In this document: piece by piece, positions 3,107-47,734 of the stretch
Position numbering within the stretch: the stretch's first letter is position 1
Layout of the letters: each line of letters starts with the position of its first letter
NCBI GenBank assembly: GCA_040753435.1
Contig: JBFMEN010000029.1
Location: forward strand, 8,173 to 72,172
From: Candidatus Omnitrophota bacterium
Lineage (GTDB): Bacteria > Omnitrophota > Gorgyraeia > Zapsychrales > JANLHA01
Length of the DNA: 64,000 nucleotides
Direction: 5' to 3'
Position numbers and translations under genes: made by a program
The notes under the pieces: generated by a model
Told to the model about the DNA's origin: nothing
Database searches by the model: none
What the model saw: only the letters and a program-made list of their open reading frames with translations

Positions 3107-3169
3107 AAATCCAATCGCCTTTCACATTAATCATTGTGTATAAACCGCCCGGGCCTATACACCAAAATA

Positions 3170-5895
<2,726 letters not shown>

Positions 5896-25622: not shown

Positions 25623-28600
25623 GTGTTGCTTTTCCCCGAACGAAAGTCGTTTCATTTCAAAAAGATAGGACTTTTCATGATTCGCCGCATAACGGCTTCC
25701 ATCATTCTGGCCGTTTTTATTTTAACTATTCCTGCTCAAATGGGAATCGCGCAAGTTTTCACGCCGGTTCCAATGCCCACACAAACAGTTGGTATCAGCA
25801 ACACGTTTTTTCCTCCATTGATGGTCGGAATCCAGGTTGATCCGCAAAATCCGCTAAAATTTGATTTTTTTATGTCAAAAGGGCAAGAAAAGCTCGAAGA
25901 AAACATTAAAAAACAAGAATATTTAAAAATTTTGCGCTATTTTCTTGCGTCAATGACGATTCCTGAGGATCATCTCTGGGTTAACCTTTCTCCAACAGAG
26001 AAAGACCGGATTATCGCGGATGATTTCAGCAGAACTCAAATGGGCATGGATTTGTTGGCCCAGGATTATTTTCTGAAACAACTAACGTCTTCATTAATGA
26101 ATCCAGATGATGAAAGCGGCAAAAAGTTTTGGAAAAAAATTAAAAAAGAGGCTAAAAAACGATATGGAATTACAGAAATTCAAACAAGTGTTTTAAATCG
26201 TGTTTGGGTTCTTCCTGAAAAAGCGATTGTGTATGAACAGGAAAAATCAGCATGGGTAATTTATTGCCGGCTGAAGGTGATGCTGGAAGAAGATTTTTTA
26301 AGTTCCCCGGATCCCCAGTTCCCTGGTTCCGCAGCAAAGGATTTGACCGGGGCGCCGGGGCACGGGGGCACTGGGGAACTTGAAAAGCAGGTTATGCGCG
26401 AGGTAATCATTCCCGAATTGGAGCGCGAGGTCAACGAAGGGAAAAACTTTGCCGTCCTGCGTCAGATTGTCAATGCAATGGTAATGGCCGAATGGTACAA
26501 GAGGTCATTAAAGGAAAGTATTTTAGGGAAGGCTTATGTTAATCAGTCCAAGGTCAGCGGAATCGATACGGAAGATTTTAAACGGAAACAGCAGATTTAT
26601 GACGCTTATTTGAAGTCATTTCAACAGGGCGTTTATGATTTTATTTATGAAGATATTGATGAAGAGACCGGAGCGATTTCGCCGCAACACTATTTTTCAG
26701 GAGGATATCAGCCCGATTTAAAAAAGGCTGTTAGCGTTGTTGATGACCCTGGAGAAATCCCCCTTCAATATCGTGTTCCTTCCGAGCAATACATAAAAAA
26801 AGTAACTCAGTCCGGAATTGATCGTGTGACCGGCGGAGCGCAACTGGTAAGTTCCCCGGAGCAACAATCCACCCCAGCAAAGAGCCCTTCCGGGGAAAAT
26901 TTATCCACAAAAGGCAAGGACATTCCTTCAGACAAGGAAGCCGCAGAAAAAGGTTCTACCGGGAAACAGGGTGGGGGGCTTGATCATGCCATGCTCGCTG
27001 ATTTTAAACCCTCCAAAGATTACAGCAGGCTGGAATTTCCAGAGCTGGCAGAGGATTTTTTTCAATTGATGCAAAAATTTGTCGAGTCCCTGGACGAGGA
27101 GGAGTGGGGGCAAGCTAAACAGGTGTATGTAGATTTGAAAACGATGACCGGGTTTTTAAGCGGGAAAGCGAAGGCGCAATCTTTTGAAGATTTTCGGAAA
27201 ACTACAGGGGCGATTCTGGATCGGACGGAAATTTTTCTTCAGTTGTTCGGCGGGCGGCAGGTGAACACGGAACAGGGTTCGGCCGTCTCCGTGGACATGA
27301 ACGTTCTTCAAAAGGAAATGGTCCAGATTGGGCAGAAGAAATTTTCTGAACAGACACGAAAGCTGATTGATCAAATCATTGAGGAAGTTGTCAGCGAGCT
27401 CTTTGATGATGAGGCTGAGAAGAGAAAGTGGCGGGAAAAACTGACGCGGGATATTGTGATGATGAATTTTGAAAACATGATCCCGGAAAAGGTTATCGGC
27501 GACATCGCCGCGCATAAAGATTATTTGATCAGCACGGTCCTTGAAATGACAAAAGGCCTGGGGCAAGCTGAAGGGTTTTTTGATCCATATGCCTCCTCGC
27601 GGAAAGTTTTCTTGAAAGATTTCGACGGGAATGAAGCGTTGTTCAGGGGCGTCGTTGAGCATGAGCTTACGCATTACGGCATTTTCCGTATTCCTGAACA
27701 ATGGGAAAACATTTCATTCGCCGTCTCACTGTTGGCAGCGATTTCTTTTGCTGAAAAACAGGGCCAGGCAATCGATGTTTATTTTAAGGAATTTTCCGAT
27801 CCGCATGTTTTTACTCCTGCTCTTGTAAAAGCCTTGTTTGAAAAAGGGCGGGTGATGGGGCAAGGCGGCGAGACCGGTTTTATCGTTTCGCCTGGCGTTT
27901 CCGACCGGAACGCCGGATACTTTTCGACCGAGTATTTGCTGTCTTTGACAAGAGAGGTTTTTGAAGAGACCGGGGCGCGGACCGATCTTTTACACGATGA
28001 TTATCAAAAACAGCGCGCGGCCGGGATGATGATCGCAGGCATGTTGCTGGGCATGAATGACAAGGATGCCGCAAAAAAACCTCTCCGGCTGTTAAAAGAT
28101 TTTTTTGATGTGCTGTATGAACGCTACGGCGATCCGACCGAAGCCAGCCCTCAAACCGGTTCCGGGGTTAAAAAATTAATTCAGGATCTTGAAAAATATC
28201 TTTCCTCTTCGGCAGGGATGATCGTCAAGCTCAAACCCGTCGCGAGCGGATCCTGGAATTTCAGGACAACAGGGCAGTTTTCGGCTGAGGTGGATTTTGT
28301 TATTTCCGACCTTTTTCCCCGTTTCTACGACGGGAAAGATAAAAATGATGCTGAGGGACAGATGGAGGCCGCCCGGGAACGGGCCTTCGGCCAGGCGTTT
28401 CTCGCGTTATCGAAAACAAAGAACGGGATGCGCCACCTGATGCACGGGCTGGACCCGTCTATTCAGAACGAGCCAGCTTCGATCCATTTATGGGACACAC
28501 TGTTGTTGTCAAAGTCCGCGAAGATCGGGGTGGATGTGAACGCGCAAAAGCTGAGAACCGGATCCATTGAGGAACAATTTACCGGTTCAGGACGCTGGAT

Positions 28601-31448
28601 CATGCGTGTTTTTAAAGACCGTTTTGAGATCGGCAATCCGATGGTGGAAGAGGCCCTCTTTTTGTCCCAGCCGCGATTTTTGCGGTATCTGGATTCTCTC
28701 CTTTACCGGCGGTTTTATTATGATGAAAAGGAAAAAAAGATTGTTGATCCCAGGGTCAAAGATCCGGTCCTCGACGATGCTGTTGCCCGGACCATGGGTT
28801 CGGCCACGGATGCATCAAATTTTGGATGGGCGAAAATTTTACTGGCCCCGCAGGATTTGACCGATGATCAGATCAAGGATATTTTCAACCGGATATGGCC
28901 GGTGTTTCAGGATCTCTATGCCAGGGACTTAAAGACCGAGGTGAATTGGCGGGCCTATCAGCGCAAGATGCGGGAAGAACGTCAGCAGGCGAGACGTCAA
29001 CAGTTCGAGCAGCTGTCGCCGGAAGGACTTCAGGATCTCGAGGATTACTTCAACAGCCTGCCGGAAGAAACCCGGGAGGCGATCCGCCAGGCTGCCGAAA
29101 AGATGCTGCGCGGGCAAATGGAACAGTTCGGAGAGCAGGGGCAGGACAGGGGACAGGAACAGGGCATGGAAGGGATGGAGGGCATGGAAGGCATGCCCAT
29201 GCCCGAAATGGAAGGAAAGACGGGCCGAAAACAACAACCGGGCAAAGGAGGTTCCAGGGGTTCTCAGCAAACACTTCCCTCCGGAGCACGGCCAGGCCAG
29301 GAAATGTCCGAAGGGGAAGGCGGCGGGGAAATTTCACCTGAACAAATGCGCGGCATGATAGAGGATATCGGACGACAGTTAAAAGGTTTGGAACAGCAGA
29401 TCGATGATATTTCAAACGGGTTGAATGCCGCCCGGTCTCAGACGGAAAATCTGGACCGCGGCGCGAAAGATCTTGACCAGTCCCGGGAATTGGAACAACA
29501 GCGTGAGAAGTCCACGGACCTGCACAAAAAAGCAAAAGATTTACAGGACGATGTTCAGGGGATTTTGAATCAGGGCCGCCGGGTGGAAGAGAGAAGCCGT
29601 CATCAGGAAGACATGTCCCGGGGAATGCAAAACGGCCTGCCTTCTCCGGAAGAAGGAGAAGGAGTTGCCGAGGATTCCAGGGACCTTTCGGGGAAGGCGC
29701 AGGAACTGCTCGATAAATTATCCGGACTTCAGCAAAAGGCTAATCAGCTGGAGAGAAGCACGGGAAATCTTGAGCAAAAATATGGAGAGCATCATCCAGA
29801 TGATTCCCAGGTGGCAAGCCAGTTGCGTGATGTCGAGCGTTCTATCAAGGAAATGAAAGATCAGATTGACCAAGGCCGAGGGGCCGAACGGTCCATGCTT
29901 CGGCAATTGCATGAACTGGAACAGGGAATAGAGAAGCTGGAGAGATCTTTGGATGCGGCCCGTCAATCAGCAGCGGCGGGCAAACAACCGGTTTCAGGAC
30001 AGGAAGACAAGGGAGTCAAGGGCGCCCCAAAATCTTTGGCCTCACAAGCTCCCGCCAATTCCGGAACGAATCAACAATCATCAAGCGAGCCGATTTCCGC
30101 ATCCTCATCTCAGCCGCAGTCTTCAGGTGCCACGGCTTTAAAAGATAACGATCAATCGAAAGAACCGCAAAGCAGTCAATCTTCCGGGACGCTGCATAAG
30201 ACACCGGATACCCTTGATATGCCCAACGCGGAAAGTCTGGAGGAAATGCTTCGGGAATCTCCGGCGGAACGGGCCGACCGTCCCCGACCGAAAAGAAAAG
30301 TGCCTGATCTTAAGGCGGCCCGCCAGTATGAAGAGGATTTGCTTCAGAAAAAAACAGGACTTAACGCGAATCAGCGCGCCGAGCTGGAAACGTATTACAA
30401 CAAAAGAGTCAGATATAAGGGAAGGGAGATGACAGTCCGGCAGCTTGTTAACGACATGACAGAGCGGCTCAAGATATTGACGCTGCCAGTCGAGGATGTC
30501 GGCTTTCAGGGCAACCTGGAGCACGGACCTGTTTTTGATCCGGTCAAGGCTGTCATCGGGCATGACGCTCCTTATGGACAATGGCGGCCCAAGGAACCTT
30601 TGTCGGTTAAGATTACATTTCTTCTTGATAACAGCGTCAGTATGGATTTGGAGTTGGAAGGTGGCGTTAAGCGGATCGATGTCGTCAGACTGACCACGTT
30701 CATTTTATTGAACGCCCTGCTCAATCATAATGAGGAGCGAGCCCGGCTGGGGTATGATCCGATCGAATTTGAGATTGCCTTGTTCGAGGATTCCGAGGCA
30801 AAGCCTCTTGTGTCGCATGAGACAGTCCGGGAGAAAAATTTCCGCAAAGATCGTTTGTTGTATGAAACATGGAACGGGCTCAACGCCGCCGGGCCGGCAA
30901 CGTATTACGCGCAGAATTTGAAAAAATTTACGGCGAGACTCGCCGGCGCTCTGGATAAAGGGTTTGAAAAAAGCACCAGAATTTTAGTGAGTGTCAGTGA
31001 TGAAGATGTGGATGAAGCGCAAAAACAAGACATCCTGGAGACCTATGCTCAGGCGGAAGCGGCAGGACTGCATTTGTTTGTCGCTCCTGTTGGTAACCAA
31101 AAGCTTCTCCGGGACACGATGGATCTCCATCGGGATCATAAAGAACGCGTGATCCGCCCGTTCCCTGTTCCTGAATTTCCCGCCAACGTCATGGACGCTT
31201 TGATGGAGACAATTCCTTCGTTCGAGGCAATGGCCGGCAGGGACGGCGCCATGTTGACGGAAGAACCCAAAGCCATAGAAGGATACAAGCATTTCTTTAC
31301 CCAGAAAATCAACGGACGAGAGTATCTTGTGTTTCACGGGGAGATACCCGCCGTTATTGGGAGCGTGGACATGGAAGGCCTGGATTTGTGCCGGACAAAA
31401 GAGTTCCCGACATCTCTCCGAATGAAGACAAGATCGTCAGGATTTTAG
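25623..31448 (+). CDS. Giant-locus ORF 1 (1941 aa). It has an N-terminal hydrophobic signal/anchor, an HExxH motif, E/Q/G-rich coiled-coil and low-complexity segments, an S/Q-rich linker, and a C-terminal von Willebrand factor A domain with a MIDAS motif. The likely true start is the ATG at 25678.
   Basis: MIRRITASIILAVFILTIPAQMG hydrophobic segment. VVEHELTHYG at 27651-27680. GMEGMEGMEGMPMPEMEG and long heptad-like stretches at about 29000-29950. vWA: KITFLLDNSVSMD (DxSxS, 30621-30647) ... ETWNGLNAAGPATYY ... ILVSVSDEDVD. Confidence 0.8.
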   Translation: MLLFPERKSFHFKKIGLFMIRRITASIILAVFILTIPAQMGIAQVFTPVPMPTQTVGISNTFFPPLMVGIQVDPQNPLKFDFFMSKGQEKLEENIKKQEYLKILRYFLASMTIPEDHLWVNLSPTEKDRIIADDFSRTQMGMDLLAQDYFLKQLTSSLMNPDDESGKKFWKKIKKEAKKRYGITEIQTSVLNRVWVLPEKAIVYEQEKSAWVIYCRLKVMLEEDFLSSPDPQFPGSAAKDLTGAPGHGGTGELEKQVMREVIIPELEREVNEGKNFAVLRQIVNAMVMAEWYKRSLKESILGKAYVNQSKVSGIDTEDFKRKQQIYDAYLKSFQQGVYDFIYEDIDEETGAISPQHYFSGGYQPDLKKAVSVVDDPGEIPLQYRVPSEQYIKKVTQSGIDRVTGGAQLVSSPEQQSTPAKSPSGENLSTKGKDIPSDKEAAEKGSTGKQGGGLDHAMLADFKPSKDYSRLEFPELAEDFFQLMQKFVESLDEEEWGQAKQVYVDLKTMTGFLSGKAKAQSFEDFRKTTGAILDRTEIFLQLFGGRQVNTEQGSAVSVDMNVLQKEMVQIGQKKFSEQTRKLIDQIIEEVVSELFDDEAEKRKWREKLTRDIVMMNFENMIPEKVIGDIAAHKDYLISTVLEMTKGLGQAEGFFDPYASSRKVFLKDFDGNEALFRGVVEHELTHYGIFRIPEQWENISFAVSLLAAISFAEKQGQAIDVYFKEFSDPHVFTPALVKALFEKGRVMGQGGETGFIVSPGVSDRNAGYFSTEYLLSLTREVFEETGARTDLLHDDYQKQRAAGMMIAGMLLGMNDKDAAKKPLRLLKDFFDVLYERYGDPTEASPQTGSGVKKLIQDLEKYLSSSAGMIVKLKPVASGSWNFRTTGQFSAEVDFVISDLFPRFYDGKDKNDAEGQMEAARERAFGQAFLALSKTKNGMRHLMHGLDPSIQNEPASIHLWDTLLLSKSAKIGVDVNAQKLRTGSIEEQFTGSGRWIMRVFKDRFEIGNPMVEEALFLSQPRFLRYLDSLLYRRFYYDEKEKKIVDPRVKDPVLDDAVARTMGSATDASNFGWAKILLAPQDLTDDQIKDIFNRIWPVFQDLYARDLKTEVNWRAYQRKMREERQQARRQQFEQLSPEGLQDLEDYFNSLPEETREAIRQAAEKMLRGQMEQFGEQGQDRGQEQGMEGMEGMEGMPMPEMEGKTGRKQQPGKGGSRGSQQTLPSGARPGQEMSEGEGGGEISPEQMRGMIEDIGRQLKGLEQQIDDISNGLNAARSQTENLDRGAKDLDQSRELEQQREKSTDLHKKAKDLQDDVQGILNQGRRVEERSRHQEDMSRGMQNGLPSPEEGEGVAEDSRDLSGKAQELLDKLSGLQQKANQLERSTGNLEQKYGEHHPDDSQVASQLRDVERSIKEMKDQIDQGRGAERSMLRQLHELEQGIEKLERSLDAARQSAAAGKQPVSGQEDKGVKGAPKSLASQAPANSGTNQQSSSEPISASSSQPQSSGATALKDNDQSKEPQSSQSSGTLHKTPDTLDMPNAESLEEMLRESPAERADRPRPKRKVPDLKAARQYEEDLLQKKTGLNANQRAELETYYNKRVRYKGREMTVRQLVNDMTERLKILTLPVEDVGFQGNLEHGPVFDPVKAVIGHDAPYGQWRPKEPLSVKITFLLDNSVSMDLELEGGVKRIDVVRLTTFILLNALLNHNEERARLGYDPIEFEIALFEDSEAKPLVSHETVREKNFRKDRLLYETWNGLNAAGPATYYAQNLKKFTARLAGALDKGFEKSTRILVSVSDEDVDEAQKQDILETYAQAEAAGLHLFVAPVGNQKLLRDTMDLHRDHKERVIRPFPVPEFPANVMDALMETIPSFEAMAGRDGAMLTEEPKAIEGYKHFFTQKINGREYLVFHGEIPAVIGSVDMEGLDLCRTKEFPTSLRMKTRSSGF

Positions 31449-32788
31449 ACACTTTTTACCCTCTCGCAAAAAATTACACCTCATATTCAAACGATGGGAA
31501 GTATCTGATCCGTAAAGTTCAGGATGGTCTGATCGAGGTCCTGGAAAGCGATCAGGATGTGTTATTTAACATTGCAAACAGTAATATGGGACCGGCGATG
31601 CGTTTGGGTGCAATAAAGAAGATGAAAGAGTTGATTAAAAACGGAAAGAACGTTAAGAAATGGACAAGGATGCTGGAAGAAGTTATCCAGAGGGAAGCAG
31701 ATTTAGAAGTTTTTATCGCATTGGGAGAAGCGCTTGGAGCGGGGTATAAGGCGGGAGCTCCGGTGGGAATAACGGAGGAATGGTTTATAGCGAAATTACA
31801 TGTCGGAAAAGGGAGTATTCGTTCAGGCATGGTAAAGATGATTCAGGGAGTGATTGAAAGCGAGAAGGGCGGTGAAAAGTGGGTCAGGATGCTGGAAGAA
31901 ATGATCCATAGGGAAACAGATCCGGAAGTTTTTATCGCATTGGGAGAAGCGCTTGGAGCGGGGTATAAGGCGGGAGCTCCTGTGGGATTAACGGAAGCAG
32001 TGATTAAAGCAAATTTGAACACCGGAAACGGCATTGAGAATTGGGGAGTTCGTTTAGCTGCCGTGAAGATGATCCAGGGGTTGATTGAAGGCAGGATTGC
32101 TGTTGCGAAGTGGGTGAGAATATTGGAAGAACGTTTCAAGGTTGAAACAGAGAGGGATGTTCTAGGCGCGGTGGTCGAAGCGCTGGCAGCGGGGTATAAG
32201 GCGGGAGCTCCTGTGGGATTAACGGAAGCAGTGATTAAAGCAAATTTGAACACCGGAACCGGCGTTGAGAATTGGGGAGTTCGTTTAGCTGTCGTGAAGA
32301 TGATCCAGGGGTTGATTGAAAGCAGGATTGCTGTTGCGAAGTGGGTGAGAATATTGGAAGAACGTTTCAAGGTTGAAACAGAGAGGGATGTTCTAGGCGC
32401 GGTGGTCGAAGCGCTGGCAGCGGGGTATAAGGAGGGGGCCTCTGTGGGATTAATAGACGCAGGGATTAAAGAAAGATTAAACACCGGAAATGGCATCGAG
32501 AGCCGGAGAGTTCGTTTGGCTGCTGCGAAGGTAGCCCAGAGATTGATTGAAAGGGAGAAGCGCGATGAAGGATGGGTGGGGTTGATTGAAAGCAGGATTG
32601 CTGTTGCGAAGTGGGTGAGAATATTGGAAGAACGCTTCAAGGTTGAAACAGATCCGGAAGTTTTGATCGCATTGGCAGAAGCGCTGGCAGCGGGGTATAA
32701 GGCGGGAGCTCCTGTGGGATTAACGGAAGCAGTGATTAAAACAAATTTGAACACCGGAAACGGCGTTGAGAATTGGGGAGTTCGTTAG
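31388..32788 (+). CDS. Giant-locus ORF 2 (466 aa) made of HEAT/ARM-like helical repeat units. It is probably the same gene as ORF 3, interrupted by a 1-nt frameshift, and possibly continuous with ORF 1 through a -1 frame change.
   Basis: About 77-aa units KWVRMLEE.IQRE.D.EVFIALGEALGAGYKAGAPVG(I/L)TE... The frame is open upstream to 31174 (61-nt overlap with ORF 1). It ends at a TAG created where gttcgtttagct became gttcgttagct. Confidence 0.7.
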   Translation: MPDKRVPDISPNEDKIVRILDTFYPLAKNYTSYSNDGKYLIRKVQDGLIEVLESDQDVLFNIANSNMGPAMRLGAIKKMKELIKNGKNVKKWTRMLEEVIQREADLEVFIALGEALGAGYKAGAPVGITEEWFIAKLHVGKGSIRSGMVKMIQGVIESEKGGEKWVRMLEEMIHRETDPEVFIALGEALGAGYKAGAPVGLTEAVIKANLNTGNGIENWGVRLAAVKMIQGLIEGRIAVAKWVRILEERFKVETERDVLGAVVEALAAGYKAGAPVGLTEAVIKANLNTGTGVENWGVRLAVVKMIQGLIESRIAVAKWVRILEERFKVETERDVLGAVVEALAAGYKEGASVGLIDAGIKERLNTGNGIESRRVRLAAAKVAQRLIEREKRDEGWVGLIESRIAVAKWVRILEERFKVETDPEVLIALAEALAAGYKAGAPVGLTEAVIKTNLNTGNGVENWGVR

Positions 32789-35700
32789 CTGCCGTGAAGA
32801 TGATCCAGGGGTTGATTGAAAGCAAAATTGATGTTGCGAAGTGGGTGAGAATGTGGGTGAGAATATTGGAAGAACGTTTCAAGGTTGAAACAGAGAGGGA
32901 TGTTCTAGGCGCGGTGGTCGAAGCGCTGGCAGCGGGGTATAAGGCGGGAGCTCCTGTGGGAATAACAGACGCAGGGATTGAAGAAAGATTGAACACCGAG
33001 AATTGGGGCGGTCGTTTGGCTGCCGTGAAGATGATTCAGGGGTTTATTGAACGCAGGATTGCTGTTGCGAAGTGGGTGAGAATATTGGAAGAACGTTTCA
33101 AGGTTGAAACAGATCCAGAAGTTTTGATCGCATGGGGCGAAGCGTTGGCGGCTGGGTATGGGGAGGGAGCCCCTGTGGGATTAACAGACGCAGTGAGTTC
33201 AGGGGAATGGCGCTCGTTGCGGGAATTCGGAAAATCTTCTGAAACAAAAGAGATCAACGGGGACAACGGCGAACGAATATTTGAAAATGCCCAGGGTCTG
33301 AGGTGGAAGATTAATGAAGAGGGAAATTTTCAGATCAGCCAGAATAATGGACAATTTATTCCGCTTAAGCAAAATCTCGAAGGGAACGGGCCACGGGATC
33401 TTTACGAAATAGACGCTTCAAGAATCCTTGCCTTTGATCAGATATCCGAGACAGTGAATGTTTTGGTAAAGGAAAATGATGCCTGGCGGGTCGAGCATGA
33501 GTTGATGATGGAAGAGGAGGATCGCGCGAATTCATGGGACGGGGTCATGCTGCGGCTGATCGGCGAGACCGGACTCGGAAAAGACGAGATTACTCTTGCC
33601 GCGGCGAACCTGATCGGTGAAGAGGTTTATGTGGCGGTCGGTAATTCAGATATGGATGTGGAAGATCTCGTTACAGGGTTTCAAAGTCTTGGCGGCCAGG
33701 AGAAAGGGACGTCGGGCGTTGAGCCGTCGGGCTTGAATAAAGTGATGCATAACGGCGGCTGGTATATTATCCGGGAAGCGCACAAACTTCGCCCCGGGGT
33801 TTTCAACGCGCTCAAGTCGCATGTTTCCGCCAAAGACCACAAGTGGCCGGTTATGCGTGACGGGATTGAGCGTTTTGAGACTATTCAGAACAATCCGCGA
33901 GCGCGGGTCGTTTTATCGGTGAACCGTATTCGTAAAGGCATCACCGGCGCGAGCACCGAGACCAACGGCCCGATGCAGGACAGGGAGCGGGATCTGGAAT
34001 TTTACTGGCTTGAACCCGATGATGAAGTGGACTTGCAGGTCGAATATGCCCTGGCCATGGCCCGGGAGAAGGGCCTTCACAGTGATGATTGGGAAACGTT
34101 TGAGGATCAGGTCAGGAAAGATGCCAGAGAGCTTGTGGATATCGCGGCTCAATTGCGGCTGACATTTGCCGGATATAACGCAGAACAGCAGGCCGAGATT
34201 CTGAGAGACTGGAATTTAATCGATTCCAAAAATCTTGTCCAAAAGATGGTAAAAGACTCCCGCATTAAACAATTGTTTGAAAGCGGCCCCGCCTTTGAAA
34301 CCGGGGAAATGCTCAAGCGCCCGCCGTCACCCCGTGTGGTCAAAAATATTTTGCAGCATTTGATCCTTTTCCCCAAAGACCGCCGCTACCGGTCTTTTGA
34401 AATCGTTAAAAAATATTACAACTTTCACGCGGAGATTTCCGGCGAGCTTGAAGAAGCGGCCATTGAAAAATTTACCGAGTGGGAAAGCAAAAGGCCCGAC
34501 AGTCATCCTGTAAAACTAACGGAAAAGTCATTTATTGTTGATGGACAGGATCTTATTATCCGCCCTGAACCGGAGGCGGATGGAACAACGTATTGGGATG
34601 AGGTGCGTGTGCCCCTGCATTCAAAAGCGTCTATCCGGACACGGGGAGTTCCCGGAGAAGTTTTGGACTGGATCAAAAGCGGAGCCAACGCACAAAATCT
34701 TTACTCCTATCTCCAGGGACGCGCCTTGGGCAAACACTGGATCTTCGTTGGAAAACCCGGCGCAGGAAAATCCACCATGATTGCCGCGATTCAAAAATTA
34801 TTGAACGCGCCCGGGAGCATGAAGCTTGAGATCACGGAAGAAACCCGAAAAGATCACCTGACGTATTCTCGTAACATTAAAGAGTTTGAAACCCGTTTTA
34901 CAAAAGAAGTCCTTCCGTCGGCCATGGAGGACGAATACGGGGAAGGACAGATCCTCAATTTAACCGAGAGCACGCAGGGCCGTCCCTCGATGCTGTCTTT
35001 GCTGAACGAGGTTTCCGAACGGAACGAACTCCCGGATCCGAATTCCAAAACGCAGGTGAAGAAGGCGAAGAGAGGTTTCGGCACGATTCATGATATTAAT
35101 CCCCCGGGCACAGCCGACCGGCTGAAGGCCTTTCCCGATGATTTTATCGAGCGGCACATGATTATGTGGTTTGATACGCCCCCTTCTGACCAGGTGACGA
35201 TGTATCTGGAAGAAGCAGGCCAGGGCAGGACGTTTCCCGAAGATATAAAATTTCAGGTCCATCCTTCTTTGATCGGGCAGCCGCGACAGGACGCGAACGG
35301 GAACAGCGAGAAATATGACGACGGGGAAATCAAATATACCGGTATCGTAGGTATAGGGCAGGAGATCAATCGCAAATTGATGGAAGATCCTTATTTTTTC
35401 CCGAAAGACAGAGAGATAAGCTACCGCAATCTCCAGGCCTTTGTCAAGGCGATCGTTGCCTATTATGAGCGCGATATCAGCATGGGCAACACCCCGCAGG
35501 ATGTTATTTTGAATCTTTTTATGGAAACGTTCACGCTTGAAGGCAAGCCGGGGAAAATGCTCGAATGGCGGACAAACATTTTAAAAGTATTTCAGGATTT
35601 GGGCTTGTATGATCCCCAGGCCGGCCAGGATGACGGCAGCGGCGGTATTGTTCCCGACGCGATTGAGAAATTCCTGAACAAGGAAGGAGTGCTCGTCCAG

Positions 35701-38700
35701 AATCTTCCGGTTTTAAAAGAACCGGATTCGGGATATCTGAACATTGACCGGATATTAAGGTTTTTGCAAACAAATACGGTTGGGCTGGGGATTCGAAGAA
35801 ATCTGGATGAGTTATCCAGTGAGGCCGGAAAGCTTTTGAGCGCAGAGACGAAAGAGTCTCTTTCGAAATGGAACGCGTTACCGGTGTCCGAAAAAGCCCG
35901 CCGCCTTCGCGCGATCCGTGAGATTTATGATGTGTTGGGGCTGATTAAAGAAAACCGGTTTGATTCAAAACAGGGCCCGGCCTATCAGTCAGAGGAGCAG
36001 GTCCGCCTGGGGGCGATTATCGAGCAGATTGTTTCAGTTATCGTTGTTCAATGGAACTGGCCCCAGGAGATTTTCACCCGCGCCGATTTAACAGAGACGG
36101 CCAAAATGTCATTAACGGAAATCCTTGACCGGCAAAGAGACAGGTTCCCGGAGATTTCAAACGCGATTTACAAAGTTATGTTGTCCGACGGGAAAAAGGA
36201 ATATCTTGATGAGCTTGAGAAAGAAATCGCGAAGAAGGGAAAGGATGTCAGCGCGCTTAAGGAAATTGTAAATATTTTAAAGCAGACAAGGGCCCTGTTT
36301 TTTCAAAATTTGATCAAATCATTGAATCAAAAAATCCGGGAAGAAGAGTTGGCGGTCAGCAATCGTCAACCGGACGCTCCTGATCAGGGAAATTGGACGC
36401 GAGCCCAGGTTGAAGAAGATCTGGCGCGTGTGAATCAGTCTCTTGCCGGAATCGAAAAAGAGCGCGGGTCGTTAATAAATAATGAGGTAAAGAATATTTC
36501 TCTGCGAGAGGGGAGAGACAAACTGTTGCAGAGAATTTCATTGAGAAAAGAAGCGCTTTTGTCGGATGTGCAAAAGCAGGACGGCAATGATTTTGATTGG
36601 GAGATTCGTTTGCGGGCAGTCAGGATCATTCAGAGTTTGGTGGAAGCGGGAGATGATAGTTGGGACATGCTCCTGGAAGAAAGGATTATGAGGGAAGATG
36701 ATTTTGATGTGTTGGAAGCGCTGGGGGAAGCCTTGGGAGCGGCTTATCGCGCGGGCGCCGATGTTGGGCTGGATGAGGAGAATATTCACTTGGGGCTTGA
36801 GGCGCAAGAAGATGAGATTCGTTTTGGAGCGGTCATGATGATCCGGGCGTTGATTGAAGGGGGAAATGATATTGAAAAATGGGTCAGACTTCTGGAAAAG
36901 GCGATTGAGAAGGAAGAGGAGTTTGCTGTATTAAGGGCAATGGGAGATGTTCTCGGTATGGGATATCAAGCGGGGGTTTCATCCGGTTTGAATAAAACGA
37001 CGGTTCGCAGACAATTGAATTCCGACAAAGGAAGCGAGAGTCGCGCTATCCAAAAGATTCGGGCGTTGATCAAAGGAGGAGATGCTGCGACAAGACAGCG
37101 ATGGGTTCGCATCTTGGAGAAGAGAATTTTGATTGAAGAAGAGCCGTCTCTTGTTAAAGGGCTGGGAGAGGTATTGGGGATAGCATATAAAGAAGGAGTT
37201 CGCTGTGGACTGGATAAAGCTAAAATTCAAAGCATGATTCAAACTCCGGGTGGTTCCCCGAATTCGGATTTCAGACTCGGCGCGCTTCAAATGATCCGAG
37301 GGTTGATTGAAAAAGGGATGGATGTTGGACACTGGGTGGAGGTTTTAGAAAAGGCGATTTCGGTTGAAATGGATCAGAAACTGTTGGACCTGATGGGAGA
37401 TGCCTTGGCGGTCGGATATCAGGCCGGGGCCCCGGTTGGTTTGGATGAAAATTTCATCAAGGCCGGTCTTGAAGTAAGGGGGATTGACCATTGGGAGGGA
37501 CACCGTTTAGGTGCGGTCAAGAGCATCCGGGCGTTGATTCAGGGAGGGCATGATGTTGAAAAATGGTCGAACGTCCTGGCAGAGCGAAGGGCGAAAGAAG
37601 ATAGTCCGATTGTTGTTCCGGCGATTCAAGAGGCAATGGAAATGGGGGTTGCTTATGAAAAAATCCGGAGGGGAGATTGGGAGAGCCTTGCGGAATGGAG
37701 TTCTCTGACAGATCTTTCGTCCGCATATGAGGCGTTAAGGGCAATCAACGCGATGAGCGCGAGAAAACAAAATTCTTTTTCTTCGGAATGGAAGGACCTG
37801 TTGATCCAAAAGATACGGGCGAGAGAATCCGAGTTGACCTTAAACTCCTCTCAAGAGGATTGGAAAATGCTTGTCGTCACTGTCAGAATTATTCAGCGGT
37901 TGATTGAATCGGGGGATGATGCTGAAAAATGGGTCGGTTTTTTGGAGGATGAAATTCGGGATGAAGTACGGCCGGATGTTTTAATGGCCTTTGGAGAAGC
38001 CCTGGGGGCTGTTTACCGGAAAGGAGCTCCGTTCGGATTACGTGAAGGAATGATTCGCGTGATGCTCAATGATGATGCATATTGGAAGACACGAGCCGGA
38101 GCAGCCAGGATGATTCAAGGGTTAATTGAGAGCGGGCAGACACCCAAAAAATGGGTTTCTGTTTTAAAACGGAGACTGAAGAGCGAAAGCGATGTGGATG
38201 TTTTACATCTTATTGGAAAAGCATTGGCAGCCGCTTACAGGAGAGGGCTTCTTGCTGGCGGAGATGAAACCAGAATAAAGAGGGATGTTGAAGGAATAAA
38301 CGCGGATTGGGATAAAGGCTTTATCGCTTTAAATGTAATTAAAAGTTTGATCGAGGATGGTCAGGAAGTTGAGAAATGGGTCAGGTTTCTGGAATCGAAA
38401 ATTAAAACCGAACAAGATGACAGTATTTTAAGGGTGATGATCGAGGCGTTGGGAGCTGGGTACAGGTTCGGAATACCTGTCGAACTGGATGTGGATACGA
38501 TCAAGGAGATCCTCTCTTTCAAAGAAGATGTTATAGATTGGGAAATTCGTTTTGCTGCGGACGGGCTCGTTTTGGAATTGATTAAACGCAGACACTTGCC
38601 TGGGACGTTGGTTAATCTTTTGGAACAACAGATGCTGGTGGAAACGCATTCCCGTGTTTTGCCCGCTTTAAGCGAGGCCCTGGAAGCGGGATACCGGGCC

Positions 38701-41700
38701 GGAGTTCCATCCGGGCTGGATCCGAAAGAGGCGGAGAGAAGGTTGCAACTTGAAGGAAAAATAGAGGAAAAGAAATCTCGTTTAGGCGCGGTCAGCATGA
38801 TCCGGGCGGTAATTCAAACTGGATATGATATTGAGAAATGGCAGGATGTGCTGAGAAAGAGAATGACGGGCGAGAAGGATGAGGAAGTTCTGGCAGCGAT
38901 TAAAGAGACGCTCGCGATGGTGGATATTTATGAAAAAATCCGTCAAAACGATTTGGACGGTTTTGGGAAATTGATTTCCTCGGCGGATTTGAAAATGATC
39001 GGCGCGGTGTTCGAAGCTGTTACCGTTATGGGAAATCGGACTGGAGTGGTGGATAAAAACAGAGAGGAAGAAGTCAAGCGAAGGGAACGCCTTAAACAGC
39101 GGTGGGATCAATTGGTGAATCGCCGGAAAGTTCTGGAAGAGCTGCTTGAGGTGCTGAAGGAGCAGGAGACGCTTGGATTGCCCGGAGGGGCGTCCCTTTT
39201 TGAAGAAGAAAAAAATATTTTTTCCAGCGAGCGGAAGGAAAAACTGATTCAGAATATGGTGGCTCGGGAAACAGAGATTGAACGGGCGTTAATGACTGTT
39301 GGTGGTGGTTTCTGGAGAAACCGTTTAGCCGCGACCAAGGCAGTTCAGAGATTGATTGAAGCCGGACTGGGTGTTCAAAAAAGGGTCGGCTTTTTGGAGC
39401 AGAGAATTAAAATTGAAGACAATATTGATGTTTTAAACGCTATGGCAGCAGCGTTGGGCGCGGGTTACCGGGCTGGGGCTGCGGTTGGGTTAACTGGAAC
39501 AAAATTTGAGGAAATACTTGAAATCGAAAAAGATCACGGGGCGATTCGGAGCCCCGCAGCCAAATGGGTTTTGATCAGGAATGTTAAAATGATCCAGAGT
39601 TTGATTGAAGGCGGACATGGTGATGAGAAATGGGTCCGTCTTTTAGAACAAAGGATCGCGGTTGAAACAGATGAGGAAGTTCGGAATGTTTTAAGTGAAG
39701 CTTTGGGCAGCGGATACCGGGCCGGGATTTCTGTCGGGATGAATGAGTCGGACATTGAAGCATCTTTTCAAAAAGGGAAAGGCGGAGAAATTTACAAGAT
39801 CAGGGCTTTAATCAGGGGCGGGCATGGGAAATGGGTTGATTTTTTGGAGGAAAGAGTCAGGAAAGAAGAAAAGGACACAGCTGCCTTTTTGGGGTTGGGG
39901 AAACTTTTAGGAGAGGTTTATCAATCCGGCATTCCGACCGGCGTGGATCCGGATGTGATGATAACATTGTTGAATTCAGGAAATGGCATGACGGACAGGT
40001 TTACCCGCTTAAGTTTAGTCAGGATGATCAGAGGATTAATTGAAGGAGGGCAGGATGTCGGGGTCTGGGTGAAAGCTTTGGAAGAAAGGATGAAAAAAGA
40101 AACAAATTATGATGTTCTTCAAAGCATTGGCGAGGCTTTGGGGGCCGCATATCGTTCCGGCGCCCATGTCGGTTTGGATCTGGATACGATTAAGAGTAAG
40201 TTAAATTTTGAAGGTGAAGATGCCAATGCCGGGTGGCCGGTTCGTTTCGGCGCAGCCAGGATGATTCAGGGCCTGATTGAAAGAGGATACAACGTTGAGC
40301 AATTGATGATTATGATAAAAGAGCGAGTGAGAGACGAAGAAATAAATATCGATGTCCAACGGGCGCTTCAGGAAACACTCGCGATGGCGGGTATTTATGA
40401 AAAAATCCGTCAGAACGATCTGGACGGTTTTGGGAAATGGATTTCCTCGGCGAATTTGACAACGGTTATTGCGGCGGTAGAGGTTCTTGACGCTATGAGA
40501 TCGGAAGGAAAAAATATTCTTTGGCGTGAATGGAAGGAGAAGTTATATCAGAGCGTTGTGTCACGGAAAGCCGGATTGTCCTTGACTTCCCATGTGGAAG
40601 ACAGGAAAGGGCTTTTAGTTAAAGTCGGGATCATCCAGCGGTTGATTGAAGCGGGACAGGATGTTCAAAAATGGGTCGGTCTTCTGGAGGATGAAATTTG
40701 GGATGAAGTGAGGCCGGATGTTGTAATGGCCATGGGAGAAGCGCTGGGGGCTGGTTACCGGAAAGGAGCCGTGACCGCTTTAACCGAAGAAATGATTGCA
40801 GGGATGCTTAATGACGACTCTGGCGATGAGTCCTGGAAAAAAAGAGTCGGAGCAGCCCGGATGATGCAAGGGTTGATTGAGAGCGGGAATGAACCTGCAA
40901 AATGGGCTGCTATTTTGGAACAGAGATTAAGGACGGGAATCGATGGCACTTGGGTTTTAAATGCTCTTGGGGATGCGCTGGCTGCCGCATATAGAAGAGG
41001 AATTCCTGCTGCTTGGGATGAAGAAACGATCAAAACGAATTTCATCGGAAAAGACGATGATTGGAATAAAGGCTTTATCGCGGCTAATGTGATTAAAAGG
41101 CTGATTGAGGATGGCCAGGAAGTTGAGAAATGGGTCAGGTTTTTGGAACAGAATGTTGATTTTACAAAAAATGACAGTTTTTTAAGAAGTTCGATTGAGA
41201 CGTTGGCAACGGGATACCGATCCGGAATTTCCTCAGGGTTGCAACCGAATATAATCTTTGATGTACTTAATTTCGGAGCAGATTCTTCAGGGTGGGGAAT
41301 TCGTTTCGCCGCGGCCGGGTTGGTTGGGAGCTTAATTGAAAGCGGGCAGGCTCGCGAAAAATGGGTTGGTGTTTTGGAACTCAGGATTTTTGGGGAAGAA
41401 GATTTTCGTGTTTTGCGGGCTTTAAGCGATGCCCTGGGAGCGGGATACCGGGCCGGAGTTCCGGTCGGGCTGGATCCGGAAGATGTTGAGAAAGGGATTG
41501 ATCTTGAAGGGGAGACAGGGGAACAGAAATTTCGTTTTCGCGAGGTTAGCCTGATCGGGGCGTTCATTCAAGCCGGATATGATATTGAGAAATGGCGGGA
41601 TGTGCTGAAAAAGAGAATGGCGGTCGAGAAGGATGAGAATGTTCTATCGGTGATTAAAGAGACACTCACGACGGCGGTTGTCGATGAAAAAATCCGTCAA

Positions 41701-44700
41701 AACGATCTGGAAGGTTTCGGGAAATGGGTTTCCTTGGCGCATTTGACAACGATCAGGACGGCGTTAGAGGTTGTTAACACCATGGAAAAGCGGATGGGAT
41801 CGGTGGATAAAAACAGAGAGGAAGAAATCAAGCGAAGAGAACGCATTCAACAGCGGCGGGAGCAATTGATGGAGCGCCGGAAAGTCCTGGAAGAGTTGCT
41901 TGAGGTGTTAAGGGAACAGGAGGGGCTCGGGTTGACTGGAGGGGCGGTCTTTTCTGAAGAAGAAAAAAATATTTTTTCCCGTGAATGGAAGGAGAATTTA
42001 TATCAGAAAATTTTATCAAGGAAAGAAGAGATCAAAAAGGCGTTAGGTGCCGAAGATTTACAGATTCGACTTGACGCAGTTTCGGTCATCCGGGAGCTGA
42101 TTGAAAATGGGAAAGACATCGGGGAGTGGGTTGAAGTTTTGGAACAGCGGTTCAGGATTGAGGATGAGCCCAGGCTCGTCAAGGCTTTGGGGGAGGCGCT
42201 TGGATCCGCTTACCGGACAGGGGTGCCATGCGGCCTGAGCGAAGAGGAAACAAGAAAAAAGCTTGATCCATCGAACTGGGAGGCGAGTCATTTTGAATTA
42301 ATGCGATTTGGAGCAATCAAGCTGATCCATGGACTTATAGAAGGAGGGCATGATAAAGAAAAATGGGTTCGTATTTTAGAAGAAAAATTTTCTTTGTCTG
42401 AGGCCTCAGCTGCCTCGATAGCTTTAGCTGAGGCTCTGGTTGAGGGCTATCGGGACGGGGTCGCGCCTGGATTAAAGGAAGAAGGGCTTGAGACGATGCT
42501 TACTTTCGGAGAGGGGGATGGCTTTTGGCGGTTTCGCCTCGCCGCAATTAAAGTCATTAAATTTTTGATTGAAAAAGGAGAGAATGTCCCGAAGTGGGTT
42601 GAAATGTTGGAGAAGCGAATCCTCGTGGAAAAGAATGATACGGTTATGAAAGCGCTTAGTGAGGCGCTGGGTATCGGATACAGGGCGGGAGCCCCAGCCG
42701 GATTGAACGAAACATTGATCAATACGAGCCTTGGGATAGGAAGCAGTGTAATGCGAAAGAGGGAAGTCAGAAAAATCCAGAGCTTGATTGAAGGAGGACG
42801 GGATATCGGGAAGTGGGTTGCTGTTTTGGAGATGCGGATTAATGTTGAAACAAATACGGAAGTTTTAAGTGCGCTCGCGGAAGCGTTAAGCGCGGGTTAC
42901 CGTGCCGGTGCTGCGGTCGGGCTAAACGAAACAGCGATTCTGGCGGGATTGAATCCAGGGAAAAATGAAGAAGAAGGAGTGCGGGCGGTCAAAATGATCC
43001 AAAGCCTGATTGATGCGGGGCTCAATGTCGAAAAATGGGTACGGGTTTTGGAACACAAAATGAAAGAGGAAAACCGCGATCGTGTTGTGCAGGTTATGGA
43101 AGATGCCGTAATTGCGGGTTATCAGGGCGGAGTTTCTGTCGGTTTGGACAAAGAAACGGTGATGAAGATGCTTTATTGGGAAAAAGATGTTTTAAGCTGG
43201 GAAATTCGGTTGAGAGCAGGCCGGATCATTCAGGCCTTGATTCAGGAAGGCCGTGAGATCGAGACCTGGGTGGCCATATTGAAATCGAGGAAAAAAAGAG
43301 AGAGAACGTGGGATGTTTCATCGGCGCTTCAGGAAACGATCGAGACGGCAGATGCTTATAAAAAAATTCGTCAGAACGATCTGGAGGATTTCGGTAAATG
43401 GCTCTCTTCGGCGGATTTGAAAATGATCGACCCGGTGTTCAAAGCTGTTAACGTCATGGAAAACCGGGCTGGAGTGGTGGATAAAAACAGAGAGGAAGAA
43501 ATCAAGCGAAGGGAACGCCTTCAACAGCGGCAGGATCAATTGGTTAATCGTCGGAAAGTCCTGGAAGAGTTGCTTGAGGTATTGAAGCAGCTGGAAACAG
43601 TGAAAACAACATTTGTCAGGACACGGCAATGGACTTCGGCAGAAACCGGGACAGTGGCAGAGATGAAAAAGCAAACGGTTGAGGTTCTCCGGGCCAAAGA
43701 ACAAGAGATGATGGAGGAGTCGTTTTCAAAAGAGAAGGCAAGATTAATTCAATTGTTGATTGAAAATGGAAGTGACGTTGAGAAGAGGAAGTGGGTAGGG
43801 ATATTGGAAGAACGGGCAAAGAGTGAAACAGACATTGACGTTGCTCGTTCCTTGGGAGCTGCTCTTGGAGCGGGATACCGTGCCGGGGTTCTTCCGGGTT
43901 TAACGGAAGCAGAGATTCAAAACAATTTAAATATTGCCTGGATTGGGGGAATTCGGTTCGGTGCTGTAAAGATGATTCAAGGGTTGATTGAAAAAGGAAT
44001 TAACGTTGAGGCGTGGGTAAGGATATTGGAAAAACGGGTAAAGATTGAAACAGACAATGACGTTGCTCGTTCCTTGGGAGCTGCTCTTGGAGCGGGATAC
44101 CGTGCCAGGGTTCTTCCGGGTTTAACGGAAGCAGAGATTCAGAAAAATTTAAATACCGGAAACGGCACTGATAATTGCGGTATTCGTTTCATTGCAGTGA
44201 AGATGATTCAGGGGTTGATGGAAAACGGTCAGGATGTTGAGAAGTGGGTGAGAGCATTGGAAGAATGGGCAAAGAGTGAAACAGAAGCAGATGTTATTCT
44301 CGCGCTGGAGGAAGCGCTTGTAGCGGGATATCGGGCCGGAGTACTTGCGGGATTAAAGGAAGAAGAGATTAAAGAAAATTTGAACAGCGTGGTTTGGAAT
44401 ATTCGTTTCATTGCCGTGAAGATGATTCAGGGGTTGATTGAAAACGGTCGGGATGTTGCGAAGTGGGTGAGAGCGTTGGAAGAACGGGCAAAGAGTGAAA
44501 CAGATGGAGATGTTATTTTCGCCTTGGTAGAAGCGCTTGTAGCGGGATACAAGACTGGAGTTTTTCCGGGATTAACGGAAACAGAGATTCAGCGAAATTT
44601 AAATGCTGGAAACGACTCTGAAGATTGGAATATTCGTTTGATTGCAGTGAAGATGATTCAGGGGTTGATTGAAAACGGTCAGGATGCTGAGAAGTGGGTG

Positions 44701-47065: not shown

Positions 47066-47734
47066 ATGAAGAAGTTTTTATTAACCGCCGCGCTCGTCTG
47101 TCTGATTTTTGGAGTACCCCGGGAAGCAAACGCTCTTATCCATGTAGGAGATTTTGGCGAGTCCGGATGGCAGAATTTCAGTTTTACAGCCGCAAACTCT
47201 TTTAATGGAAACATAGGATTTTTAGTCAGCGACGTTGGGGACATCCTCGTGCCGTCAACATTGCTCATTGATAATATCGTTGTTCAAAATCAGGTTGTTC
47301 AAAGTTTTGAAGATGCCGCATTGCCGGGGACATGGTATGGAGACGCCTATTTGGTTAATAGTCATACAACGTACTATGGTTCGGAATACAATCCTACCAA
47401 CGGCAATCAGATGCTTTTTATGGATTCTGATGGTACAGATCCTGCGACAGGAAATCTCGGGGTAATAGCCGATACGTCTGCTTATGGCGGTACCGATGGC
47501 GTTTATGGATATATGCCGTTTGCCTTCCAGGCGGGCAATATAGTTTCTTTTGATTGGGCGTTTATAACCGAAGATTATTTACCGTACAATGATTTTTCAA
47601 TGTTTTTATTAATGGACGATCTCGGAGAATCAAGAACAACGCTGGCGGATGTCGGCGTTGTTCCGGAGCCCGCATCGCTGTCCTTGTTCGGTTTAGGGCT
47701 CGCAGGATTATTTTTGCGGAAGAAACGCGCATAA
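47066..47734 (+). CDS. PEP-CTERM sorting-domain protein (secreted, exosortase substrate)
   Basis: Signal peptide MKKFLLTAALVCLIFGVP. C-terminal VPEPASLSLFGLGLAGLFLRKKRA is a PEP motif followed by a TM segment and a basic tail. Confidence 0.8.
   Translation: MKKFLLTAALVCLIFGVPREANALIHVGDFGESGWQNFSFTAANSFNGNIGFLVSDVGDILVPSTLLIDNIVVQNQVVQSFEDAALPGTWYGDAYLVNSHTTYYGSEYNPTNGNQMLFMDSDGTDPATGNLGVIADTSAYGGTDGVYGYMPFAFQAGNIVSFDWAFITEDYLPYNDFSMFLLMDDLGESRTTLADVGVVPEPASLSLFGLGLAGLFLRKKRA

Follow-up and report, generated by a model that had tools for sequence, protein, structure and literature searches.

A divergent vWA domain with a complete predicted MIDAS in an Omnitrophota giant gene that appears to be broken by two frameshifts

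A stretch of 64,000 nucleotides (nt) from Candidatus Omnitrophota bacterium, referred to here as the window (assembly GCA_040753435.1, contig JBFMEN010000029.1, positions 8,173 to 72,172 of the forward strand), raises the question of whether a long, unannotated open reading frame (ORF) ends in a genuine von Willebrand factor A (vWA) domain with a metal-ion-dependent adhesion site (MIDAS), and how such a domain would relate to the ATPase and repeat sequences encoded directly downstream. A first-pass annotation, made from the sequence alone, had placed a vWA domain with a complete MIDAS at 30560-31130, at the C-terminus of the first of three consecutive ORFs, and had likened its neighbourhood to known pairs of MoxR ATPases and vWA proteins. 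Our analysis makes it likely that the domain is a divergent vWA domain with a complete MIDAS, and that it lies inside a single gene of about 7,065 codons (25677-46872) broken by two single-base homopolymer deletions. The three ORFs are the following:

25623..31448, + strand, ORF1: 1,941 codons, with its own stop at 31446-31448
31388..32788, + strand, ORF2: 466 amino acids (aa), HEAT-like repeats
32773..46872, + strand, ORF3: 4,699 aa, with Pfam matches over the whole ORF to AAA_5 (E 8e-20) and to HEAT_2

The AAA and HEAT neighbourhood described in the first-pass annotation is therefore present, ORF2 and ORF3 following ORF1. Read from the ATG at 25677, ORF1 is NCBI MEW5894892.1 ('hypothetical protein AB1650_03925 [Candidatus Omnitrophota bacterium]', annotated as complete, 1,923 aa). 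The relatives described below carry in public records no name, the name 'hypothetical protein' or the name 'AAA family ATPase'.

The extent of the domain was set by homology and comprises an N-terminal extension, a Rossmann-like core and then a C-terminal helix bundle with a hairpin. All three sequence strings on which the first annotation was based were found at the positions claimed, in the plus-strand ORF1 translation; its interval covers the vWA core but stops short at both ends, leaving out some 65 residues of the conserved extension on the N-terminal side and, on the C-terminal side, about 70 residues that form helices and the hairpin. The domain and its motifs are:

30360..31340, + strand, vWA/MIDAS domain (ORF1 aa 1580-1906)
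30609..30647, + strand, KITFLLDNSVSMD (aa 1663-1675), which holds DxSxS
30627..30641, + strand, MIDAS DxSxS (DNSVS; D1669-N-S1671-V-S1673), directly after strand beta1
30882..30908, + strand, NAAGPATYY (aa 1754-1762)
30900..30902, + strand, MIDAS threonine T1760 (GPAT; GG-GT in relatives), invariant
30987..31013, + strand, VSVSDEDVD (aa 1789-1797)
30999..31001, + strand, MIDAS aspartate D1793 (VSD-ED; TDE/TDG/GDG in relatives), directly after strand beta4

Taken alone, the DxSxS motif is at chance level and carries no weight, D.S.S occurring once in the restored 7,065-aa protein versus about 1.0 expected from composition; it is conservation that lifts the match above chance. Relatives of the domain surfaced only in an exhaustive phmmer search (query aa 1580-1941; target 1.84 billion cluster representatives from clustering at 50% identity), a word-indexed homolog search with the window domain having returned none. 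The exhaustive search recovered 35 proteins with E from 3e-239 to 3e-4, most of them 2,000-7,500 aa long with the domain internal. In an alignment of 31 sequences (A1), whose identity to the window copy is 21-50% and whose median pairwise identity is 29%, exactly six columns are invariant, namely D1669, S1671, S1673, M1674, T1760 and D1793 (D90, S92, S94, M95, T181 and D214 in domain numbering). When the members of A1 were scanned singly against Pfam, 26 of the 31 matched PF00092 VWA (best E 5e-10) and 24 matched PF13519 VWA_2 (best E 2.4e-11), with fewer matching VWA_CoxE, CobT_C and VWA_3. The A1 profile in turn matched, among PDB sequences, the vWA domain of collagen VI (E 1e-6), the integrin alpha-X I-domain (E 8e-6), the Rea1 MIDAS (6qt8, E 4e-5), alpha2delta-1 (E 6e-5) and CobT (E 3e-4). 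In the alignment to integrin alpha-X the family DxSxS falls on DGSGS, G-x-T on GFT and TDE on ITDG, which we take to be the MIDAS motifs of integrin I-domains.

An AlphaFold2 model of the domain, built with A1, reached a mean predicted local distance difference test score (pLDDT) of 88.4 and a predicted template modelling score (pTM) of 0.81, and its strands alternate with helices, which bears out the beta-alpha alternation proposed from the sequence. Strand E83-89 is followed by DxSxS, T181 stands before helix H183-195 and D214 after strand E206-213; the MIDAS motifs thus occupy the C-terminal ends of beta1 and beta4 and the N-terminus of one helix, all three within blocks with pLDDT of at least 91. 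In this model the MIDAS of the window copy is a predicted metal site, with its residues at the positions expected in the fold. The best 50 Foldseek matches in the PDB are all vWA domains (best E 5e-8), the first in rank being the NorD vWA domain bound to the MoxR ATPase NorQ (9qh8_G, E 5e-8). The largest query coverage is reached by the MIDAS domains of Rea1 and MDN1 (TMq 0.52 and 0.51, about 305 columns), while generic I-domains and the vWA domains of anthrax receptors cover about 205-215 columns. A segment of about 40 residues before beta1 (model residues 41-82) has lower pLDDT and contains a predicted hairpin. The check by structure prediction therefore returned matches to vWA folds only, and not the lack of any vWA or Rossmann-like fold that the annotation had named as the adverse outcome.

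Several results obtained with the window copy itself weigh against this assignment. Pfam gave no VWA-family match in the whole of ORF1 at E<=1, none in its C-terminal 342 aa at E<=10 and none in the 327-aa domain at E<=1; NCBIfam gave no match to the domain, and phmmer found none for it among PDB sequences. The T-loop, moreover, reads AGPAT where the family has GGGT. The proposed hidden Markov model check with PF13519 and PF00092 was thus negative on the window copy, even at E<=10, and the vWA call accordingly rests on the homologs and on structure prediction. With the residues invariant across the family, the PF00092 matches in 26 of 31 homologs and a model resembling vWA domains only, the proposal of a vWA domain with a complete MIDAS holds, and we consider it highly probable that this stretch is a true, very divergent vWA/MIDAS domain. 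Only the weakest of the alternatives to be weighed below concerns the fold; the others concern the gene in which it lies or the role of the domain.

Very probably ORF1, ORF2 and ORF3 derive from one gene. When the tail of ORF1, the head of ORF2 and aa 150-1300 of ORF3 were compared by blastp with the 35 relatives, all three matched the same chains in that order, and in 20 relatives the match to the ORF2 head always lay 15-20 aa past the match to the ORF1 tail. The junction of the relatives, aligned by eye, reads GY+HFFTQ.I.GR.YLVFK(8 aa)WERG.GG..VP...NE.KI..IL..Y....YSSYS.DGKY.IR. In the Omnitrophota locus L002 a single ORF of 3,589 aa is collinear with ORF1 aa 448-1904, ORF2 aa 1-57 and ORF3 aa 209-1101, and single ORFs are also present at the loci L003 (2,847 aa) and L010 (3,312 aa). 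The AAA region is in the same chain as the vWA domain in 26 of 34 non-self relatives, the remaining eight being fragments that end too early; every relative that is long enough has vWA domain, linker and AAA region in one ORF. The features of the junction are:

31338..31341, + strand, frameshift 1: G4 run in cacGGGGag, G5 to G4, from three-frame translation and relatives
31342..31558, + strand, conserved vWA-ATPase linker in the ORF2 frame (WERG.GG..VP...NEDKI..IL..Y....YSSYS.DGKY.IR), from blastp and alignment by eye
32785..32788, + strand, frameshift 2: cgTTag versus cgTTTag in sister repeats (32043, 32274), TTT to TT

At the first site the ORF1 frame reads GYKHFFTQKINGREYLVFHG and from there on departs from the family, the final 35 aa of ORF1 being without counterpart in the relatives. 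Homology to the relatives continues in the ORF2 frame (RRYWERGHGRPGF), ahead of any start codon there: RRYWERGHGRPGFVPDKRVPDISPNEDKIV lies in that frame and begins upstream of its first possible start codon, the frame being open back to 31172 with no start codon before 31388. Addition of one G at 31338-31341 yields YLVFHGGDTRRYWERG, with the spacing seen in the relatives (YLVFK.8 aa.WERG). At the second site, direct DNA comparison shows GGGGAGTTCGTTAGCTGCC where the sister copies at 32043 and 32274 have GGGGAGTTCGTTTAGCTGCC; this change creates the TAG that ends ORF2, and ORF2 ends and ORF3 begins inside one repeat unit. The boundaries of the three ORFs are therefore due to two 1-nt frameshifts, and the locus is currently mis-modelled as three genes. 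That the domain stands at the C-terminus of ORF1 is literally true in the window, but this position is a product of the frameshift, the domain being internal in relatives. Programmed ribosomal frameshifting was also considered and given low weight on reading the sequence, no canonical slippery heptamer being present at either site.

What the vWA domain is joined to is an ATPase unit in ORF3:

33373..35772, + strand, ATPase unit (ORF3 aa 201-1000): a small beta domain and two AAA_5 modules (Pfam AAA_5 E 4e-21, two stretches)
33562..33585, + strand, AAA-1 Walker A, GETGLGKD
33763-33780, AAA-1 Walker B: IIRE in the window clade, VxDE in most members
34750..34776, + strand, AAA-2 Walker A, GKPGAGKST
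34954-34971, AAA-2 Walker B: LTE in the window copy (Thr as first acidic residue), hhhhEE in most members

These 800 aa contain two P-loop modules, and none occurs elsewhere in the protein. The Walker A motif of AAA-1 reads across the family G[ED]xGxGK followed by D, G, S or N, the usual S/T missing; AAA-2 keeps the canonical GxxGxGK[ST] and conserved arginines throughout. The AlphaFold2 model of the unit (pLDDT 84.3, pTM 0.80) has as its top Foldseek matches dynein AAA1-AAA3 over 750-850 columns (E about 3e-16), a superposition that is due to the tandem arrangement. Against single modules in the PDB the AAA-1 profile scored 35 bits with CbbQ and 24 bits with NorQ. Against all six midasin modules it gave a summed E of 2e-27 with at most 21 bits per module, and a specific affinity to midasin was rejected, given that this value sums six or seven modules each scoring at most 21 bits, below the 35 bits of CbbQ. 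The per-module scores thus place the modules in the MoxR/midasin/dynein clade, nearest per module to the CbbQ/NorQ type. In the relatives, where 26 proteins link the vWA domain to AAA_5 modules, this linkage is shown to be obligate and in cis, with two such modules downstream; the distance from MIDAS to AAA-1 is about 130 aa in them versus about 750 aa in the window protein, the excess being caused by a repeat insertion. The resemblance to MoxR-vWA pairs proposed earlier therefore stands as regards the coupling of a vWA domain to MoxR-clade AAA_5 modules, and fails as regards its form, which is a cis fusion and not a two-gene pair. PADLOC returned no match for the vWA domain or the N-terminal region, its output for the AAA region did not rise above P-loop-level noise, and the known defence-system models gave no match of the kind expected for vWA-MoxR ternary conflict or defence systems.

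The order of domains in the restored protein is a signal-peptide-like start, a HExxH region, a coiled coil, the vWA domain, the linker, about nine repeats, the ATPase unit, about 39 further repeats and a C-terminal motif. The parts other than the vWA domain, linker and ATPase unit are:

25677..25754, + strand, probable true start (ATG, ORF1 aa 19) and signal-peptide-like N-terminus MIRRITASIILAVFILTIPAQMGIAQ, from translation; MEW5894892.1 starts there
27645..27707, + strand, R....HExxH..........E motif RGVVEHELTHYGIFRIPEQWE (ORF1 aa 675-695), within a conserved N-terminal region of about aa 440-1150
29070..30359, + strand, coiled-coil/low-complexity spacer rich in E/Q/S (about aa 1150-1579) that separates the N-terminal region from the vWA domain
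31559..33372, + strand, inserted array of about nine HEAT-like repeats of 77 aa (231 nt), from TRF and jackhmmer
36541..46416, + strand, about 39 further HEAT-like repeats of about 76 aa each in eight higher-order blocks (ORF3 aa 1257-4548), from jackhmmer, TRF and Pfam HEAT_2 (E 6e-9)
46693..46869, + strand, C-terminal motif GGIDLNP...(~35 aa)...(I/E)GL(T/V)P.I..I.P (ORF3 aa 4641-4699), which closes the giant protein

A Kyte-Doolittle scan of the restored protein singled out the N-terminal segment as its sole strongly hydrophobic part; a looser scan found a hydrophobic N-terminal segment in 12 of 21 long homologs, and the visible N-termini look similar. At least 85% of 22 homologs conserve the HExxH-type motif, which hints at a zincin-like metallopeptidase site within the N-terminal region; this region matched no Pfam or NCBIfam family. 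The spacer was delimited by composition and by weak, sub-cut-off Pfam coiled-coil matches (Laminin_II, ATG17_like, EzrA). In all there are about 49 HEAT-like units of about 76-77 aa (231 nt), arranged in blocks of 4-5 units, and between the blocks stands a conserved spacer, YEKIRQNDL.GFGKW...VDKNREEEIKRRERLQQR.... The copies of the inserted array are up to 90% identical in DNA, and the relatives lack the array at this place, L002 having 37 aa there; the block is for these reasons either a recent expansion or an assembly-sensitive region. The GGIDLNP motif also occurs at the C-termini of the closest relatives (L002p, P0004, P0005 and P0011), has no match in Pfam or NCBIfam, and may be a sorting or anchoring signal.

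How might such a protein work? By analogy with characterized systems, we lean modestly towards a vWA domain and AAA modules that work together in a manner like that of NorQD or midasin. The MIDAS would hold Mg2+ or another divalent ion, and a target protein would complete the coordination of this ion through an acidic side chain. The tandem AAA_5 modules would probably oligomerise into a ring, three chains supplying six modules, and this ring would use ATP to twist or pull the vWA domain, the force being transferred perhaps through the hairpin segment before beta1 as a possible equivalent of the NorD 'finger'. The bound target could thereby be remodelled or released, with the HEAT-like arrays serving as a scaffold or binding surface. 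The scheme draws on the cryo-EM study of NorQD, which describes an AAA+/VWA finger-in-pore mechanism with the NorD finger just N-terminal of the vWA core (PMC13036017), and on the general MoxR-vWA literature (PMC7159879, PMC3495828). Some points count against it. The ring stoichiometry and the 'finger' are inference only; the non-canonical Walker motifs make the ATPase competence of the window copy uncertain; and a Sec-type signal peptide with no further hydrophobic segment predicts export, to where ATP is normally lacking. The signal-peptide-like start is at odds with an ATP-driven cytoplasmic machine; it may be an uncleaved anchor, or it may point to export towards a host or prey cell or to an adhesin role of the MIDAS.

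The two frameshifts are 1-nt losses in homopolymers and are either assembly errors or real mutations. Were they real, the gene would be a true pseudogene or a phase-variable gene, and the vWA domain a relic or expressed only after slippage, an explanation that we consider improbable yet the strongest of the alternatives. In its favour, one gene carries two independent frameshifts, both in short homopolymers; the Walker B positions of the window copy are non-canonical, and together with the frameshifts they would allow that the giant gene is inactive in this genome. The 20 other window ORFs scanned with Pfam have domain matches that look normal and, judged by these matches, show no obvious split, which favours a real change. 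On the other hand, the fragments remain open for 1,941, 466 and 4,699 codons and keep every family-invariant residue as well as the C-terminal motif, so that any inactivation would be very recent; one of the sites lies within repeats 90% identical to each other, where errors of assembly and polishing concentrate. The Arg at the Walker B of AAA-1 is shared with intact relatives, and the absence of a slippery heptamer speaks against expression by slippage as well.

Somewhat less plausible, and unlikely in our view, is a giant surface protein that attaches to host or prey cells through the vWA domain, which would then be an extracellular adhesion module of integrin type and independent of AAA modules that would be structural or degenerate. 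The signal-peptide-like N-terminus as the sole hydrophobic segment, and the hydrophobic N-terminal segment in about half of the long homologs, fit this picture, as does the non-canonical Walker A of AAA-1. For giant Omnitrophota ORFs a role as adhesins or in the interaction with prey has been proposed, and in the 'Archaeovorin' giant proteins of this phylum HEAT repeats were detected only in predicted extracellular regions (PMC10066038; bioRxiv 10.1101/2023.11.21.568195). Yet complete family members never show the vWA domain without the adjacent AAA pair, and AAA-2 retains its canonical Walker A and conserved arginines family-wide. The best structural matches by rank and coverage are moreover the AAA-partner NorD and the MIDAS of Rea1/MDN1, with I-domains behind in coverage.

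A two-component MoxR-vWA system, in which ORF1 would encode a secreted protein of its own, with the vWA domain at its end, that acts in trans on a separately translated AAA/HEAT protein, is very unlikely. ORF1 does have its own stop codon and a complete protein in NCBI, and classical MoxR and vWA partners are separate genes (PMC7159879). Under this reading, however, WERG.GG..VP would be untranslated in both ORFs, since it lies in the ORF2 frame upstream of any start; the tail of ORF1 is missing from the relatives, every long-enough relative has vWA domain, linker and AAA region in one ORF, and the split between ORF2 and ORF3 falls within a repeat by loss of one T relative to its sister copies. 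Finally, a fortuitous DxSxS/T/D match without a vWA fold, for which one could cite the single D.S.S expected by chance at this length and the lack of Pfam or PDB sequence matches for the window copy, is refuted by five MIDAS residues and one Met being the sole invariant positions in 31 homologs, by the PF00092 matches of 26 of these, and by a confident AlphaFold2 model that in Foldseek fits vWA folds only.

A divergent vWA domain cis-fused to tandem AAA_5 modules in one giant gene is thus the reading that we carry forward, and it applies to a family that is small (35 clusters at 50% identity among the 1.84 billion representatives), unannotated and mainly from Omnitrophota. A search of GTDB representative genomes with the AAA-1 alignment found 10 related loci; the labels recorded for related loci are Omnitrophota (five), Planctomycetales/Planctomycetia (two), Elusimicrobia (one) and Methanosarcinales (one), two being without phylum label. 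The archaeal label belongs to L007 (JAIWAR010000003.1, 54367-67374), which is 39% identical in AAA-1, sits on a contig binned as a Methanosarcinales archaeon metagenome-assembled genome and has a giant ORF that extends beyond the 13-kb locus on both sides; a mis-binned contig of an Omnitrophota epibiont or predator, or lateral transfer, are possible explanations. Domain order is not universal: P0010 (3,579 aa) has its AAA unit (876-1683) before the vWA domain (3050-3328) and a second linker motif at 696-732, and P0005 (5,348 aa) contains the N-terminal region twice, layouts that likely reflect tandem copies or fused neighbouring paralogs. In four distant homologs (P0012, P0013, P0030 and P0033) the vWA core is directly followed by a strongly hydrophobic segment, which, if membrane-spanning, would put vWA domain and ATPase on opposite sides. 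A transmembrane helix between the two parts was rejected as a general feature, such segments occurring only in these four and in neither the window protein nor its clade.

The genes that flank the giant gene are bacterial housekeeping genes (thrS, infC, pheST, rarA, RNase Y, ymdB, gltX, glnS, trkAH), and no nor or cbb genes were found in context among the window ORFs scanned with Pfam. A third frameshift, suspected in gltX (ORFs 51082-51555 and 51549-52880), was ruled out, as the upstream ORF encodes a PilZ protein. The next gene downstream of the giant gene (47066-47734) encodes a PEP-CTERM protein. A GC skew of 0.33-0.43 with positive AT skew is sustained over most of 32000-46000, the giant repeat-coding region, falling to only 0.09 in one 2-kb interval (34001-36000) over the AAA modules, and is about 0.1-0.2 in flanking genes; the strong skew is probably due to the biased codon content of the repeat.

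Among known systems, the window protein resembles NorQ-NorD and CbbQ-CbbO, in which a vWA domain with complete MIDAS is also coupled to AAA_5-type modules: the NorD vWA domain is its top structural match, AAA-1 as a single module matches CbbQ and NorQ best by sequence, and the window vWA domain has a segment just N-terminal to beta1, where NorD carries its pore-inserting finger. It differs from them in being one polypeptide with the vWA domain N-terminal to the ATPase and two AAA modules per chain instead of one, in its length of about 7,000 aa with signal-peptide-like start, HExxH region and about 49 HEAT-like repeats, and in the lack of a nor or cbb context. From the classical two-gene MoxR-vWA systems it thus retains the link of AAA_5/MoxR-clade modules to a vWA domain, but not the separate neighbouring genes with a single-module ATPase. 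With midasin (Rea1/Mdn1) it shares a giant single chain with tandem AAA_5 modules, a MIDAS and an acidic low-complexity/coiled region, and the midasin MIDAS domains cover the vWA model most and match the A1 profile (6qt8, see above). Unlike midasin, it has two AAA modules and not a six-module ring, a signal-peptide-like N-terminus, and a MIDAS before the AAA modules, whereas that of midasin lies at the C-terminus, about 2,500 residues after the AAA part and past a long linker and a D/E-rich region. Midasin is also marked by a MIDAS loop or finger that docks into the pore of its AAA ring; in the window protein the segment before beta1 would be the candidate for such an element. The per-module similarity to midasin, being below that to CbbQ, indicates no specific orthology, and the organism being a bacterium there is no pre-60S substrate.

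PF00092 domains (integrin I, collagen VI, anthrax-receptor) have the same fold, and the five MIDAS positions align to integrin alpha-X; the window copy differs by an identity of only about 14-18%, by falling below Pfam detection, by extra N- and C-terminal elements and by its linkage to an ATPase instead of extracellular matrix modules. The giant Omnitrophota ORFs ('Archaeovorins' and others) come from the same phylum and have HEAT_2 and AAA_5 among their frequent domains (bioRxiv 10.1101/2023.11.21.568195). They are, however, over 20-30 kb or 30,000 aa in size, with many transmembrane helices and SecA-like domains (PMC10066038; bioRxiv 10.1101/2023.11.21.568195), the Archaeovorin type having over 30,000 aa, numerous transmembrane regions and a SecA DEAD-like domain (bioRxiv 10.1101/2023.11.21.568195), whereas the window protein has 7,065 aa, one N-terminal hydrophobic segment and no SecA match in Pfam. 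In these two papers on Omnitrophota giant ORFs, vWA, MIDAS and midasin go unmentioned (PMC10066038; bioRxiv 10.1101/2023.11.21.568195).

As a domain, the element adds a divergent new member to the known vWA superfamily; the system as a whole varies the MoxR-vWA/midasin theme by cis fusion, with the vWA domain first and two modules per chain, set within a giant repeat protein. In one published view, the tandem-AAA arrangement bearing a MIDAS arose early in eukaryotes from single-module MoxR proteins (PMC3495828). It is a speculative and rather doubtful thought that we are dealing with a prokaryotic lineage in which a MoxR ATPase became tandem and cis-fused to a MIDAS, intermediate between two-gene MoxR-vWA systems and eukaryotic midasin/dynein, and which, bearing a Sec-type signal in host-dependent or predatory Omnitrophota, might be an exported ATP-driven remodeller at or inside the prey or host cell. 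The partnership of AAA+ and vWA proteins (NorQD, CbbQO, RavA-ViaA, midasin) is widespread and, mechanistically, a young field, in which a bacterial chain with tandem AAA_5 modules and an invariant MIDAS is a natural fusion in which the stoichiometry and geometry of the partners are fixed. The family offers a comparison point for the origin of midasin-like architectures and a first entry point to the function of one class of large Omnitrophota proteins that lack annotation.

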